Below are positions 1,040 through 51,408 of a stretch of 64,000 nucleotides of DNA, one piece after another. How positions within the stretch are numbered: position 1 is the stretch's first letter; each line of letters opens with the position of its first letter. The DNA lies in IMG/VR virus record IMGVR_UViG_3300003601_000003; one strand, written 5' to 3'. The notes below the pieces were generated by a model. The model was given only the letters and a program-made list of their open reading frames with translations. It ran no database searches and had not been told where the DNA came from. The translations under genes and the position numbers were made by a program. The stretch comes from an uncultured virus (IMG/VR IMGVR_UViG_3300003601_000003). Taxonomy: Duplodnaviria > Heunggongvirae > Uroviricota > Caudoviricetes.

Positions 1040-1290
1040 ACAAAACACCCCGACTCTCCTAAGAGAAGCCGAAGTGTCGGGCAAGTGAGCTGACCTCGCC
1101 AAGCATATCTGAGTCTGCGTAAAGCCCAATCGCGAGAAGAATCTCACATCCTGGCTCAACCCCCCCTTTTGGGATTGAACCTACGACATGAGGTCAGAAT
1201 CACTCATATCGACCACTACCCAATCTAGGGAGGTTTACCTTTACAACAGCATAAAGGCTTTGTCGTGGGTTAGTGGTATCACCCAACTGT
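1040..1290 (-). ncRNA. candidate structured non-coding RNA of unknown family
   Basis: ORF-free GC-richer island between a GTAACCCCTTATTTAT+TATAAT promoter (1299-1314, -) and a terminal hairpin plus U-tract (~1042-1077); several nested helices whose mismatches become G-U pairs only on the minus strand. Confidence 0.55.
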
Positions 1291-1361
1291 ATTATACAAT
1301 AAATAAGGGGTTACAGTTATAGTTTATTTATCATCACACAAGGTAAAGTAAAGGGGTCATC

Positions 1362-3716
1362 GTGCAGAATAAAACAAGTAGGATAAGAGTACCTAAACCA
1401 TTGGTACGAGAGATTGTATCACATATATTCAGCCAAGTAGGTGTCTATAATGACCTCAGTATAAGTGTCTCAGTACCATCTCCACCGAGAGTTCATAGGT
1501 ATCTTGCAGACTTAGACTTGAGAGTGGAGATAATACCTCCGAGTGCGTCTAGGAAGTTAGAATTTGAGGCTAAATACGATCCGACTAACTCTGTCATTTA
1601 TGTAAATCTACCTTATTTAGAGAGTCGCTACGAAGGTAGAGAACTTGAACAATCTCTCTACAAAGTAGTCGCTCACGAGCTTGTTCATGTATATCAAATC
1701 CTCTATACAAGATCACGAGATAGCGATCCCAATGCAGTAAACCCAACAGCAGGACTTCCTGGTCTTAGAGAGAGAACTCCACAATATAGGCAAGAAGAAG
1801 GCGACATACTTCACCATCGCCTAGACGATAATGAGTTTTACCCACGCTTAGAGGATACGATCAATGCTATTAAATTTGTACTAAAGAGGAATCCTGGAAA
1901 ATTAGTTGAAATAGTCTCTTATGTCTTAGGTGAGTCAAGTCGCCCTGTATATAGGTCTAAGCATTTAAAAGAGCCTATAGAATGGCTCATAGCTTTAGAT
2001 AGATACGCACCTAGAAAGTTCATCAAAGCTGTAAGGAAGATTAAGAATGAGTTCCCCGAAACAGCTAAACTTACCCGTCAAGCCGATTTCTTTAGACAGG
2101 TTAGCCCACCCGATGAACTGAGTACCTTTAGCAATGGCACACCCACGGGTAAAGGTACAGATCTTGAAGATAAGGGTGAGGGGTCACAACTGCCTAATGG
2201 AGATGGGGCTAGGGACATAGGTCGTCCTAGCCCCGACTCACCGAATCTCAAATCAAGAAATCTTGATCGTTCTGAGTCATATGGCAGGAAACCCGCTGAA
2301 AAACAAGACTTTGGTTATGTTCATGATAGTGGTAGCGGTAGTGCTAGGGTTATCCCTTATGATAGTGGTTTTGCGAACAACTCATCTCCTCTGAGAAAAG
2401 CATCCTCCAAAGTTAAACCCATGTTTTTAGGGTCTGACGGGTCAGCGATGGCTTATGATTTCTACTTTATGCGAGTCGAAAAAGACTACTATTATCACTA
2501 CACATACAGAGATCGTGCTGATGAGATCATTGAAGATGGACATCTAAGACCTAACTTCTACAAAGACCAGCCTGGTGCTAAAGGTGTGTTCGCTATTTCT
2601 GGATCTTATGGGCAAGTGGTTACGAGTCTTCAAGTCAGTGGTTCTAGGAAAGAACACATGGATAAAATCGTAGCTCTCAAGTTTAAGACTAGAACTGAGC
2701 CTAAGTATGGATATCCCGAAGAAGTCATTTGGGATAAGCCTGTGAAACTTATTCGACCAGAGATTGTGGGCGTTTCAAAAGCAGTATCCGATCTGAACCG
2801 AAATGAAGACTTGGGAGAGAACTTCAAGGTGTTTTACGACTTCAAGAAGGCAGTCGAGATCAAAAAAGAACATGGGAAACCTAACGCTAAGTCTAAAACA
2901 GCGTCTATTAGTAGGATAGCTCATCGCTATCTTCAAAGTGCCGCCCAACCAGCTCAAGACTTGGCAGGTGTCAAAACTTGGGTTGATAAAAACCGACAAG
3001 ACCAAGTTCAAAACGATACCTCTTCTCCAGATAAATCAAGAGAAGATTATGAAGATGGTAAGCCACAGAGAGATCGAGTTCTTCCTTTACCAAATGGACA
3101 CCCCGAAGGTCGAGATGAACAGCGAGTCGGCCCAGGTCAAATAAACTCACCTCCCGATTCTAGTGGTCAAGGTGGAGCGAACCGTCCAAAGAAAGACCCT
3201 AGTGCATTAAATGACCACCCCGATGGAAAAGCGTTACATGAACGACCTAGATCAAGCGGTATGCCTGGAGATGAGTATGGACACCCTTATATAGACCAAT
3301 CCACATCTACGGGATTAAAGCGTAGAGTCATGGCTTCCATTGAGAAAATCTCTTATGTGGGAGAAGATGACTTTTATGCAGAAGAAGAAGATTTCTATTG
3401 GGATATAGAAGATGGTGTGATGGTAAAAAATGCCCTCTTCAGATACAACTTCCGACCCCCAAGAGGGAATAAGAGACAGCGTTCTCAAAAGGGTCAGGCG
3501 AAACGAAAATCTCTAAAGACTAAGCGTAAATATAGAGTAAAATATCGTAGAAACCTCATTAAGCAAAAGAGGTTATACAAGCGTAAGAAACACAATCCTA
3601 CTTACAAAAAGTACAAGAAAAACTATGCTAAAAACCCTCAGAAGTACAAGCGTAGACCTGGTGGTGTCAGCACAGTTAAACAAAAATCTCAAAGAGCAGA
3701 AAAAAGGAGAAAGTAA
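1362..3716 (+). CDS. multidomain (polyvalent-type) protein: zincin-like HExxH domain, putative ADP-ribosyltransferase-like domain, K/R-rich C-terminus
   Basis: VAHELVHVYQ motif; YYHYT...IIEDGHLRP...GVFAIS...YPEEVIW resembles H-Y-E clade ART strands; very basic tail; class-1 promoter upstream. Confidence 0.55.
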   Translation: MQNKTSRIRVPKPLVREIVSHIFSQVGVYNDLSISVSVPSPPRVHRYLADLDLRVEIIPPSASRKLEFEAKYDPTNSVIYVNLPYLESRYEGRELEQSLYKVVAHELVHVYQILYTRSRDSDPNAVNPTAGLPGLRERTPQYRQEEGDILHHRLDDNEFYPRLEDTINAIKFVLKRNPGKLVEIVSYVLGESSRPVYRSKHLKEPIEWLIALDRYAPRKFIKAVRKIKNEFPETAKLTRQADFFRQVSPPDELSTFSNGTPTGKGTDLEDKGEGSQLPNGDGARDIGRPSPDSPNLKSRNLDRSESYGRKPAEKQDFGYVHDSGSGSARVIPYDSGFANNSSPLRKASSKVKPMFLGSDGSAMAYDFYFMRVEKDYYYHYTYRDRADEIIEDGHLRPNFYKDQPGAKGVFAISGSYGQVVTSLQVSGSRKEHMDKIVALKFKTRTEPKYGYPEEVIWDKPVKLIRPEIVGVSKAVSDLNRNEDLGENFKVFYDFKKAVEIKKEHGKPNAKSKTASISRIAHRYLQSAAQPAQDLAGVKTWVDKNRQDQVQNDTSSPDKSREDYEDGKPQRDRVLPLPNGHPEGRDEQRVGPGQINSPPDSSGQGGANRPKKDPSALNDHPDGKALHERPRSSGMPGDEYGHPYIDQSTSTGLKRRVMASIEKISYVGEDDFYAEEEDFYWDIEDGVMVKNALFRYNFRPPRGNKRQRSQKGQAKRKSLKTKRKYRVKYRRNLIKQKRLYKRKKHNPTYKKYKKNYAKNPQKYKRRPGGVSTVKQKSQRAEKRRK

Positions 3717-19539: not shown

Positions 19540-20418
19540 ATGAGTAATACAGTTGATAATGCCGTAAAACAGAAGATCATTTCTGACTACATTAAGACTC
19601 CTCAAGGTCGTGCGAAGCTCGCCGCTTCAATGACTCAACCTTTACGCCTTCGTAGAGATTACACCTCTGTTGGTCGCAAGACTTTCTTAGTCGAGCAACT
19701 TCCAGACGGTGCTTTACCTATCTACGACAAAGACCCAGATGTTACTGCATTTGTGGTTGGTGAAGAGGGTGAAAACATTCTTGCAATCACCAAACCTCGT
19801 AGGGTTATCTTCCCTCTTTTCGAGATTGCTTCAAATCCTGAGATTCCTTTGACTCAAATCAAAGAGCGTAGATTTGACCTTATCGAGAGGGCACAAGATT
19901 TAGCTCGTGCTCAAATCCAAGCGGCTGAAGACGAGCGTGTATTCGCTATTCTTGACGCAGTTGCGGCAAACGGATTTGATTCAGTTGCAGGTCAAACTAA
20001 CGCTGACCTTCCTGTTATCGCTCCTCTTAATGGTGCTGTTCTTGCTGACGCATTTAGCCTCATTGAGCGTCACGACCTTCGTGTTGCCCGTATCTTCATG
20101 AATGCTCGTGATTATGCTGACATCCGTAAGTTCGGTAGAGATATCCTCGACATCGAGAGCCAAGCGGCACTTCTCAAGACTGGTCTTCAGGCTACTCTTT
20201 GGGGTGCTCAGATCATCACTAGCCGTCTTGTTCCTGTTGGAACTGTTTATGTCTGCTGTGAGCCAGAAATGTTCGGTCGTATCCCTGTTCGTACAGAATT
20301 GACCGTTCTCTCTGCTGACGATCCAAAAGCTCGTACAATTGGTTTTTCAGTGTTCGAGAATTTGGGTATTGGTGCCTACAACCCTCGTGGTCTTGCTCGT
20401 CTTACAGTACAGCGTTAA
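19540..20418 (+). CDS. major capsid protein (HK97-like fold)
   Basis: Position after protease/scaffold/decoration genes, strongly biased codon usage, strong terminator; sequence pattern (LAASMTQPLR..RDY..VGRK, AQIQAAED, FMN..DY.DIR.F, LWGAQII.S..VP.GTVY) like capsid proteins of large phages. Confidence 0.75.
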   Translation: MSNTVDNAVKQKIISDYIKTPQGRAKLAASMTQPLRLRRDYTSVGRKTFLVEQLPDGALPIYDKDPDVTAFVVGEEGENILAITKPRRVIFPLFEIASNPEIPLTQIKERRFDLIERAQDLARAQIQAAEDERVFAILDAVAANGFDSVAGQTNADLPVIAPLNGAVLADAFSLIERHDLRVARIFMNARDYADIRKFGRDILDIESQAALLKTGLQATLWGAQIITSRLVPVGTVYVCCEPEMFGRIPVRTELTVLSADDPKARTIGFSVFENLGIGAYNPRGLARLTVQR

Positions 20419-28801: not shown

Positions 28802-29368
28802 ATGGATCAAAAGCTAATGGAGCAGATTTTTTCTGACGCACATGGACTACAAAACTGTCCGACTCCAAGCTATGTCTCGGATGATCAGGTTGAAAAGATA
28901 CATTCAATCTTAGAACATATGAGCAAAGTATCTCCAGTAGAAGCCGATATGGTTGAGTTGCATCTATTACATGGATTGAGCCAAGCATATCTCGGAAGGA
29001 TTTTTGGTTATACACAGCCAAATGTCCATTACAGGGTTAATCGAGGGTTAGATAGATTGAGAGTCTATGCACAAATTACAATCTATGAGGAAGCTGAACT
29101 CAGAAGATTACTGTCTGGGTTCTTTATAGACAATAAAGACATCGAAGTTTTAGTTCTTTTATACACCTACTCTAGCCAAAGCTATGTGGCTCGTCTGTTA
29201 GGCGACACACAAGGAAAGATCAGATACAGATATTTGAAGTGTTTAAAAGCGATGGAACAATCACCAAAATTAGATGAAGTGTATAATACCTTTAAAATCA
29301 TCAGCGAAAATATCACTCTTCTTAGAGTTTTACCCGAAGATGTTGATCGGAAGAGGGTGATCTTATGA
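28802..29368 (+). CDS. protein with two sigma-70 region-4-like HTH units (putative transcription regulator/sigma-like)
   Basis: HGLSQAYLGRIFGYTQPNVHYRVNRG and SSQSYVARLLGDTQGKIRYRY. Confidence 0.55.
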   Translation: MDQKLMEQIFSDAHGLQNCPTPSYVSDDQVEKIHSILEHMSKVSPVEADMVELHLLHGLSQAYLGRIFGYTQPNVHYRVNRGLDRLRVYAQITIYEEAELRRLLSGFFIDNKDIEVLVLLYTYSSQSYVARLLGDTQGKIRYRYLKCLKAMEQSPKLDEVYNTFKIISENITLLRVLPEDVDRKRVIL

Positions 29369-40342: not shown

Positions 40343-40533
40343 GTCGTTCTCCGTTCGGGGAGTGTTGGTTGGTGAGGATTGTCCCCCTTACATTATGATA
40401 TAAATAAGGGGTTACGATTCTAACTTTCCTTTACTTTGCAGGTGTTTATGGTTTTTGTGCGTGTAGCGTAACCCCTTGTTTATACCCTTACATGAGGATC
40501 GAACCTCGCCACCAACTCTTAATGGAGAACCAC

Positions 40534-49971: not shown

Positions 49972-50166
49972 ATGAAAGTTCGTGTGGAATGGGATTTCTC
50001 TCAAACAGAGCTAGAAGATACAGAATACGACAAAGCAGTTGAGCAAGCAGGGCTTCCCCATATCGTCCTTATACCCATAGATGTGGCTTATGAGGATGAA
50101 GGTGGGATCTCCGATTGGATCAGTGACAAGTTTGGGTTTACAATCTATGAGTGGTGGGAAGTGTAA
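49972..50166 (+). CDS. small hypothetical protein
   Basis: GGGAG RBS right after glnII. Confidence 0.55.
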   Translation: MKVRVEWDFSQTELEDTEYDKAVEQAGLPHIVLIPIDVAYEDEGGISDWISDKFGFTIYEWWEV

Positions 50167-50236
50167 CCCCTTATTTATGTCATAGTGTAAGGGGCTGAAA
50201 ACCAACCCCTCAAACTCCCCAAAGGAGAACGCCAAG

Positions 50237-50779
50237 ATGAACCACCTAACCCTCCTCAACACAGTGAGCTACGCAACCGAAGCTCACAAAAATCAGCAAC
50301 GCAAGAGTGGCGGAGCCTACATCTGCCACCCAATCAGAATGTCGGCCGCACTTGCAAGTGCAGGGGTCAACGACCTACTTCCGCTCCAAATCGCCCTCCT
50401 CCACGACACCATCGAGGACACTACGGTGACCTACAACGACCTCCTCACAGAGTTTGGACAGGAGGTCGCAGACGGAGTGGTCGAACTGAGTGATGACAAA
50501 GCACTCGACAAAGCCACACGCAAGGCTCTCACCATCACCCACGCCCCACACCTCAGCCGAGCATCCGCTCTAGTGAAGATCGCAGACAACTGCGACAACT
50601 GTAACGGGATCATGGGCGACCACCCTCCCAAAGGGTGGAATCAAGAGAGGATCACAGCCTACGGAGAGTGGGCAAGGAAGGTAGCAGAGGGAGCTTACAA
50701 AGCTCTTAAGAGCGAGGGGGACAGAGAGATCGCCCGAAACCTCGCACGAGGAAGCAAACTCCCAACCAACCTCGGCTAA
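50237..50779 (+). CDS. Mesh1/SpoT-like HD hydrolase (small alarmone hydrolase)
   Basis: AH..Q.RK.G..YI.HP, ALLHDTIEDT, FG.EV...V..LSDDK, LVK.AD..DN. Confidence 0.85.
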   Translation: MNHLTLLNTVSYATEAHKNQQRKSGGAYICHPIRMSAALASAGVNDLLPLQIALLHDTIEDTTVTYNDLLTEFGQEVADGVVELSDDKALDKATRKALTITHAPHLSRASALVKIADNCDNCNGIMGDHPPKGWNQERITAYGEWARKVAEGAYKALKSEGDREIARNLARGSKLPTNLG

Positions 50780-51408
50780 AGAGGAGGGGAGAGAAGGTCA
50801 AAGCGATAAAACGCAGACTTGACCCCCACCTCTAAGACCCCACCACTACGCACCAACAACTGAGAGAAGTTGTTGGGATCATTTACTACATCATAAGTAG
50901 CCAACCCACAGATGTAGAATTCGTACCTTGACTCTCTTATCACGATAATCTGAGGTGTGTTTGAGGAGCTAGGTGTAGGCTTTCTTAACAGTGGGAAATC
51001 TCCCATGTTTACTGTCTTGACTCCCACCTCATATCCCGCTGACCTCAAGTCGGGAACATAGTAGTCATTAGAGTTCCCTACAGAAAAGTCAACGAACAAC
51101 TTACCTATGTGTTGTTCCACAGCACACTCACCACCCCAACCAGTCAGGTATCTTTTAGCCAACGACTTTGGGTCTTTAAAGTATTGACCCCCCTCTTGTC
51201 TTTTCTTCTCGATCACTTTCTTAACGAACGACCTTATTTGAGCCTCTTTATCGGTGCTTAGAGAGACTTTTGGGTATGAGTCTAGGTGTTGCCCTACAAA
51301 GTGATTGAAGGACGGTTCTATACCCTCTAAGATCTTTGACCTCAATCTTCTTTCACCTTGCAGTTGAGCAGGTATTCTCGCACATAATGTTGAATAGCCC
51401 TCACCCAA
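50776..51408 (-). CDS. hypothetical protein, possible PD-(D/E)xK nuclease fold
   Basis: G..GE.AV...PDL....EVGVKT pattern; start uncertain. Confidence 0.4.
   Translation of the reverse strand: MGEGYSTLCARIPAQLQGERRLRSKILEGIEPSFNHFVGQHLDSYPKVSLSTDKEAQIRSFVKKVIEKKRQEGGQYFKDPKSLAKRYLTGWGGECAVEQHIGKLFVDFSVGNSNDYYVPDLRSAGYEVGVKTVNMGDFPLLRKPTPSSSNTPQIIVIRESRYEFYICGLATYDVVNDPNNFSQLLVRSGGVLEVGVKSAFYRFDLLSPPL

Follow-up and report, generated by a model that had tools for sequence, protein, structure and literature searches.

An uncatalogued, probably stand-alone structured RNA of a huge-phage sub-clade and a candidate target in a sigma-region-4-like gene

Related phage and bacterial RNAs

Species 1 and 2 of phage T4 are stable non-tRNA RNAs of the phage tRNA cluster, and GOLLD and ROOL are large, multi-stem orphan phage RNAs of unknown function. 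The RNA discussed here is likewise a multi-stem phage RNA; it differs from GOLLD and ROOL by its much shorter length, its narrow distribution and the absence of an Rfam match. It recalls T4 species 1 and 2 in that a relative on another contig (L244, see below) lies between tRNA-like units beside a tRNA-Asn; in contrast to them it is preceded by a promoter motif of its own, and in the related genome G002 ca. 99 kb separate it from the main tRNA cluster. Its likeness to 6S RNA (SsrS; RF00013) is limited to a few short consensus words and a long, irregular closing helix; it lacks the rod with a central bubble, and covarying and variable hairpins fill its junction. Antisense control of a phage transcription regulator has a precedent in the lambda aQ and OOP RNAs (PMC12197685). 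Like aQ, OOP and 24B_1 of Stx phage, the present RNA is non-coding, has a promoter motif of its own and would have as its target the mRNA of a phage regulator; in contrast to all three, it lies 28 kb from its proposed target, with which it shares 13 contiguous complementary bases, and it comprises two folded domains in ca. 250 nt without sequence relation to them, whereas lambda aQ is proposed to act in cis (PMC12197685). The RNA is a new family of a known general kind, uncatalogued in Rfam 15; new here are an invariant core, the relative in L244 and the candidate target. No description of the RNA was found in the literature searched, including part of the supplements of PMC10690425, which may list it.

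The window (the whole stretch of 64,000 nucleotides analysed, IMG/VR record IMGVR_UViG_3300003601_000003) is part of a marine huge phage that probably infects Myxococcota. The capsid protein of the window (19540-20418) shares 89% identity with its counterpart in the 485-kb LR745208 and 39% with that of phage G; relatives of this protein are encoded on 573 viral-contig stretches, and close relatives of the window phage reach 376 kb (G002). The host assignment follows from the glutamine synthetase of the window, since its named relatives belong to Myxococcota, Bradymonadia and Deltaproteobacteria; the marine setting is indicated by sequencing runs of the same study, which carry the label marine metagenome. 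Downstream of the RNA, on the same (minus) strand, follow a 77-residue membrane protein (755-988) and a protein with a CHC2 primase zinc finger (249-758; Pfam); a 784-residue ORF on the plus strand (1362-3716) diverges from the RNA. The gene of a 188-residue, sigma-region-4-like helix-turn-helix protein (28802-29368, plus strand) adjoins a NusG-like gene.

A conserved fold under purifying selection

A real, stand-alone non-coding RNA very probably occupies the minus strand, with putative ends at ca. 1041 and 1291. In the 5' domain (1212-1277), an outer helix (1266-1277/1212-1222; one compatible change) encloses a hairpin (1237-1258; one double and one compatible change). The 3' domain (1082-1206) is closed by a long irregular helix (1190-1206/1082-1097, together with 1185-1190/1104-1109), in which three compatible one-sided changes all fall on the 5' strand and 100% of the cells are paired. 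Within its junction stand a hairpin with an invariant purine loop (1153-1181; four double changes) and a hairpin of variable length (1131-1148), to which the three versions outside the window add 13 bases. A 3' hairpin with a short U-tail (1041-1078; one double and one compatible change) is the probable terminator. The initial annotation had proposed these helices with their inner and terminal hairpins, and all are present on the minus strand; the segments 1185-1190 and 1104-1109 are complementary, as it had stated, but the computed ensemble does not favour their pairing, whereas the confirmed helices of the window RNA have pair probabilities of 0.55-0.99. Its terminal hairpin is likewise present and conserved, but the U-tract proposed to follow it is short, and a scan for sigma-70 promoters and terminators lists neither the promoter nor the terminator of the RNA. 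The description of the region as ORF-free does not hold literally, as short ORFs overlap it; one of 15 codons, starting at 1106, has its stop codon in the loop of hairpin 1041-1078 and is present in all four versions. Seven bases of the 5' domain (1255-1261, minus strand) are also complementary to seven in the core (1121-1127); this long-range, 7-bp pairing, which shows no variation, rivals hairpin 1237-1258 and might represent a pseudoknot or a switch.

The minus strand folds at -96.5 kcal/mol (z -3.62; none of 200 shuffles as low), the plus strand at z -1.74 (10 of 200), and the RNA versions of two relatives at z -3.52 and -3.77; G-U pairs account for 13 of the 79 pairs of the minimum free energy structure on the minus strand. 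Random 250-nt windows of this genome (n = 68, 20 shuffles each) have a mean z of -0.78 (sd 1.25) and reach -3.48; folding energy alone is therefore weak evidence, and that of the RNA is only modestly unusual. The claim of a non-coding RNA rests on conservation rather than on energy. Four contigs carry an identical RNA; with the distinct versions in L005, L006 and L150, four distinct sequences including that of the window are available, at 86-95% identity, whereas the adjacent primase-domain gene differs at ca. 40% of its four-fold sites (26/63 and 24/60). Across these four sequences the 76 named pairs are paired in 97.6% of cells, with six double changes; none of 500 shuffled alignments scored as high and slid alignments were paired in 41-46% of cells, with the caveat that the sequences are only four in number and that such counts are inflated by their being related. 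It would be highly improbable for the constraint to act on the DNA instead, at an origin or a protein-binding site next to the gene of the primase-domain protein, with the fold as an incidental property: a genome background that reaches z -3.5 and covariation from just four related sequences leave some room for this, yet double changes occur in three hairpins, and the one-sided changes need G-U pairs on the minus strand. The compensatory changes, the identity relative to four-fold sites and the lack of Rfam and ARAGORN matches fit the structured, uncatalogued RNA with its own promoter that had been proposed.

Upstream of the RNA lies a phage-specific promoter motif (class A; 1299-1314, minus strand) with seven copies in the window; its 11-base form occurs 62 times in the complete relative G002 and 40 times in G003, and its 8-base form 2, 2 and 6 times in the near-complete, RNA-less genomes G013, G014 and G005. 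A promoter with a perfect TATAAT had been annotated at these positions; they coincide with the repeated phage motif, but the TATAAT hexamer lies outside it, at 1291-1296 (minus strand). Transcription would start near 1293-1290, because Shine-Dalgarno words at other copies can begin already 26-27 bases from the motif start. The hexamer is kept in the three versions for which upstream DNA is known and accompanies just 2 of the 62 class A copies in G002 and 2 of the 40 in G003, and does not belong to the consensus of the motif; a sigma-70-like reading of it is doubtful, and it probably straddles the start site and possibly forms a second, host-type promoter. Two class A copies (40384-40415, minus strand; 50163-50194, plus strand) are followed by an inverted partial motif, which yields a hairpin over the start site. 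A class B promoter (1320-1331, plus strand) precedes the divergent 784-residue ORF and has 11 copies in the window, at 1320, 7427, 18806, 22005, 22468, 23091, 26500, 38320, 48899, 51722 and 53467; its last five bases are those of class A, which suggests that the phage has two promoter types of its own that end in the same -10-like tail.

Model R1 detects the RNA in 3 of 27 related records, and in one of the five that are at least 90% complete. In L005 and L006 a full promoter copy begins within the U-tail of the RNA, in L006 two extra genes are inserted downstream, and L008 contains the membrane-protein/primase gene pair without the RNA; the RNA therefore behaves as a unit of its own. The same observations speak against a cis-acting leader or attenuator of these two genes, although pairing of the 5' end of the RNA with 1076-1081 could compete with the 3' hairpin, the U-tail is short, and the window and L150 have just degenerate promoter traces after it. 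The variant in which the conserved element is a gene for the 15-codon peptide draws on the retention of this ORF in all four versions; yet no Shine-Dalgarno word accompanies the ORF, synonymous changes in it are absent across the core, and L244 has a frameshift in it. Leader and peptide gene together appear very improbable.

The invariant core, its relative in a tRNA cluster, and known RNA families

The 54 bases at 1074-1127 (minus strand), which include the stretch common to L244, form an invariant core strand: none of its columns varies, compared to 64 of 196 elsewhere in the RNA. The opposite, 5' strand of the long helix varies in 8 of 23 columns (binomial 0.008, Fisher 2e-8, for core boundaries that were picked after inspection of the data). 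Since the core remains invariant while its pairing partner drifts, this strand is constrained beyond pairing and is read by its sequence.

A related stretch, L244, was recovered by a metagenome scan in which its 15-base seed extends to 23 of 27 aligned columns identical to the core; its flanks score 32, compared to 10.9 +/- 1.9 (maximum 17) for 119 chance seeds. It differs from the core chiefly in the bulge of the long helix, and adjoins a tRNA-Asn among tRNA-like units on another metagenome contig (11.6 kb), where tRNA alone matched Rfam. The 5' part of L244 differs from the RNA; with a fold of z -1.9 and a weak R1 score (10.6 bits, E 0.62, second among 25 weak matches), homology beyond the core is therefore uncertain, and a common core is claimed for L244 and the RNA, not a whole common fold. 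On the minus strand of L244, two T-arm-like units that ARAGORN does not call, one of them CCA-ended, lie upstream of the core, and 3' of the tRNA-Asn lies another small element of several stems, with a G+C-rich helix of 7 bp at its base.

Five exact core-pattern scans of viral contigs, which matched 13, 17, 21, 57 and 66 loci, recovered only the window, L005 and L006 versions, and a scan for a 5'-domain pattern found only window copies among at least 119 matched loci. Among the at least 121 loci matched by the core pattern in metagenomes, 119 were chance matches and two were real; the two matches in a genome collection were both due to chance. No match to the RNA occurred in plasmids or in 50,697 phage records, and R1 matched neither LR745208 nor 61 genomes of an unrelated phylum, in runs that had no positive control. 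Given the short search pattern, metagenomes may hold further relatives.

At gathering score, Rfam 15 has no match in the window, in agreement with the initial annotation, which had recognised no known family; at E<=10, positions 760-1400 yield four chance matches, one of them inside the RNA at 15 bits. A housekeeping RNA that has degenerated or been rearranged (6S, two-piece tmRNA, RNase P, SRP, or else a mimic of the 23S L11 domain) could be read into the 6S consensus words, a T-loop-like word, the open frame that ends in a hairpin loop, an 11-base match of the window version to 23S rRNA near position 1050, and the partly rod-like fold of L244. The sequence nevertheless appears to refute this reading largely, and it is improbable: Rfam and the family-specific searches are silent at the locus, as is the 6S profile, rRNA scores equal those of shuffles, and in L150 the T-loop word behaves as part of a covarying stem. 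The individual candidates were rejected as follows. For 6S RNA, RF00013 matched none of five phage records while controls scored, a profile HMM built from 31 6S RNAs was silent on all five sequences, and a rod with a central bubble conflicts with hairpin 1153-1181, which has a probability of 0.99 and four double changes. ARAGORN called no tRNA gene, and the T-loop-like letters of hairpin 1153-1181 are altered in L150, where they change together with their partners, so that the hairpin was also rejected as a T-arm. Matches to the tmRNA model RF00023 were confined to tRNA-cluster regions and did not touch the RNA locus, and the would-be tag frame ends in a hairpin loop in four versions and is frameshifted in L244. 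The bacterial A-type RNase P model (RF00010) and the large SRP model (RF01854) each found nothing in five records; the complement 1255-1261/1121-1127 lacks the P4 bulge, and neither junction hairpin has a GNRA loop. Core and whole RNA scored like shuffles against E. coli rrnB in three scorings (E. coli only), which speaks against the L11-domain mimic. The neighbourhood is not that of a mobile-element guide or template RNA (retron, DRT, IS110, TnpB): it consists of the primase zinc-finger protein, the membrane protein and an ORF that matches nothing in Pfam or PHROG; SmpB, Ro60/TROVE, reverse transcriptase, TnpB and IS110 were absent from the 313 of 450 G002 ORFs scanned. Likenesses to hatchet, HDV-like, twister, c-di-GMP and Y RNAs, judged by eye, were dropped since Rfam gave no match.

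A candidate target in the sigma-region-4-like gene

Part of the core, a candidate 13-base seed at 1098-1110 (minus strand) that includes the 7-base bulge, is the exact complement of 28980-28992 (plus strand), corresponding to nucleotides 179-191 of the coding sequence of the sigma-region-4-like protein. This protein matches Pfam Sigma70_r4 at E 1e-5 and, weakly, sigma and Q-like PHROGs; its best fold matches are to region 4 of ECF sigma factors, none of them at E<=0.001. The candidate target site, deep inside the coding region, is kept in five distinct sub-clade sequences (window, G002/G011, G003, G010/G012 and G007; 79-91% nucleotide identity), of which G007 and G010 are fragments that may or may not carry the RNA; its four codons are unchanged across the five while flanking codons vary, and the gene contains three invariant runs of 14 bases, the site being one of them. 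Seven more distant genes (G009, G013, G014, G017, G018, G039 and G005) lack it.

No other 13-mer of the core is both antisense to an mRNA of G002 and common to G003. Among 20000 shuffled cores, 473 have such a word in G002 and G003, 21% of such words also occur in the window, and 124 of 416 three-way words also occur in G010 and G007; the chance of the match is about 0.15% before allowing for choices, and perhaps 1% by the author's estimate after choices of word length, strand and region, for a lead that arose after several other ideas had been tried. In a single genome a 13-base match is expected by chance (the longest matches of shuffles reach ca. 13-14 bases); three RNA-less genomes each have 13-16-base matches between the sigma-like gene and non-coding DNA, with no convincing antisense element to this gene, and a 12-base match of the gene to non-coding DNA is common to G002 and G003. 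By duplex energy the target ranks fourth of 450 G002 ORFs; the duplex (-20.7 kcal/mol) must pay opening costs of 2.6-8.0 kcal/mol in the RNA and 6.0-9.9 kcal/mol in the mRNA, for a net of ca. -5 to -8. No compensatory change between RNA and target is seen because both are invariant.

It is tentatively proposed, at a probability of little more than one in three, that the RNA is a trans-acting riboregulator of the phage's own sigma-region-4-like gene. Carried as a stand-alone RNA by one sub-clade of the marine huge phages, it would be made from the class A promoter and end at the 3' hairpin, while its helices would hold the core strand ready for recognition. The 7-base bulge and the weak adjacent helix would open, and at least 13 bases would pair with the sigma-region-4-like mRNA inside its coding region; such pairing would lower or delay the sigma-like regulator and thus time the phage programme, and the remaining core might bind a protein partner, for example a chaperone or nuclease. 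If the pairing holds, a structured RNA would govern the phage's own transcription regulator at a distance; if it fails, an uncatalogued RNA family is still at hand, and its core motif can seed wider searches. Few huge-phage RNAs have a candidate function; in this case an invariant core, a relative elsewhere and a named, testable target come together.

The candidate seed leaves 41 of the 54 invariant core bases outside its explanation. A protein-binding scaffold or decoy would be a stable RNA whose invariant strand and junction bind a protein of the host or of the phage (RNA polymerase or sigma, or else a factor of translation or defence), with the mRNA match due to chance. Such a role would account for an invariant stretch that exceeds any seed, and for the recurrence of the core in the tRNA cluster of L244; as judged by eye, the same outer helix could be closed there by a comparable 5' strand. 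Two proteins, the one a CCA-adding or poly(A) polymerase and the other with a HAD_SAK domain, are limited to the RNA-bearing sub-clade; however, 87 ORFs have that distribution, so that co-occurrence singles out none, and neither Ro60/TROVE nor SmpB family members were among the 313 scanned G002 ORFs. This function is possible, though on the unlikely side; it and the riboregulator are not mutually exclusive. L244, which retains just 8 contiguous bases of the 13-base seed, differs in the bulge in the manner expected of a scaffold whose seed varies. It is a decidedly unlikely extension of the riboregulator proposal that the RNA is the founding member of a scaffold-plus-seed family in large phages, in which an exchangeable bulge silences the sigma-like switch and the L244 copy has been retargeted; if this were true, the huge phage would gain an RNA-based control of timing. 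Less likely again is a base-pairing RNA aimed at a host transcript: a fixed target in the host, probably one of the Myxococcota as judged by the glutamine synthetase relatives, would freeze the strand in all phage versions, but similarity or complementarity to E. coli rRNA does not go beyond that of shuffles, and the stretch common to L244 would require a common target.

Other features of these genomes were noted in passing. In G002, six N6/N4 methylase-like genes are clustered, and the genome also encodes a volactin (actin-like) protein and the CCA-adding or poly(A) polymerase (L312 2885-15571, L307 11984-12982, L310 17902-19848); this polymerase also occurs in G003 and is absent from G005, G013 and G014. 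In the window, at least eight unrelated ORFs (23115, 24275, 26489, 37184, 37576, 52156, 53481 and 54545) begin with a common N-terminal peptide of ca. 20 residues, possibly a loading or targeting tag. A G+C-rich island (52-58%) at ca. 50160-50880, which has the lowest raw folding energies of the window and covers ORF 50237-50779 behind a class A promoter, is possibly a recent acquisition.
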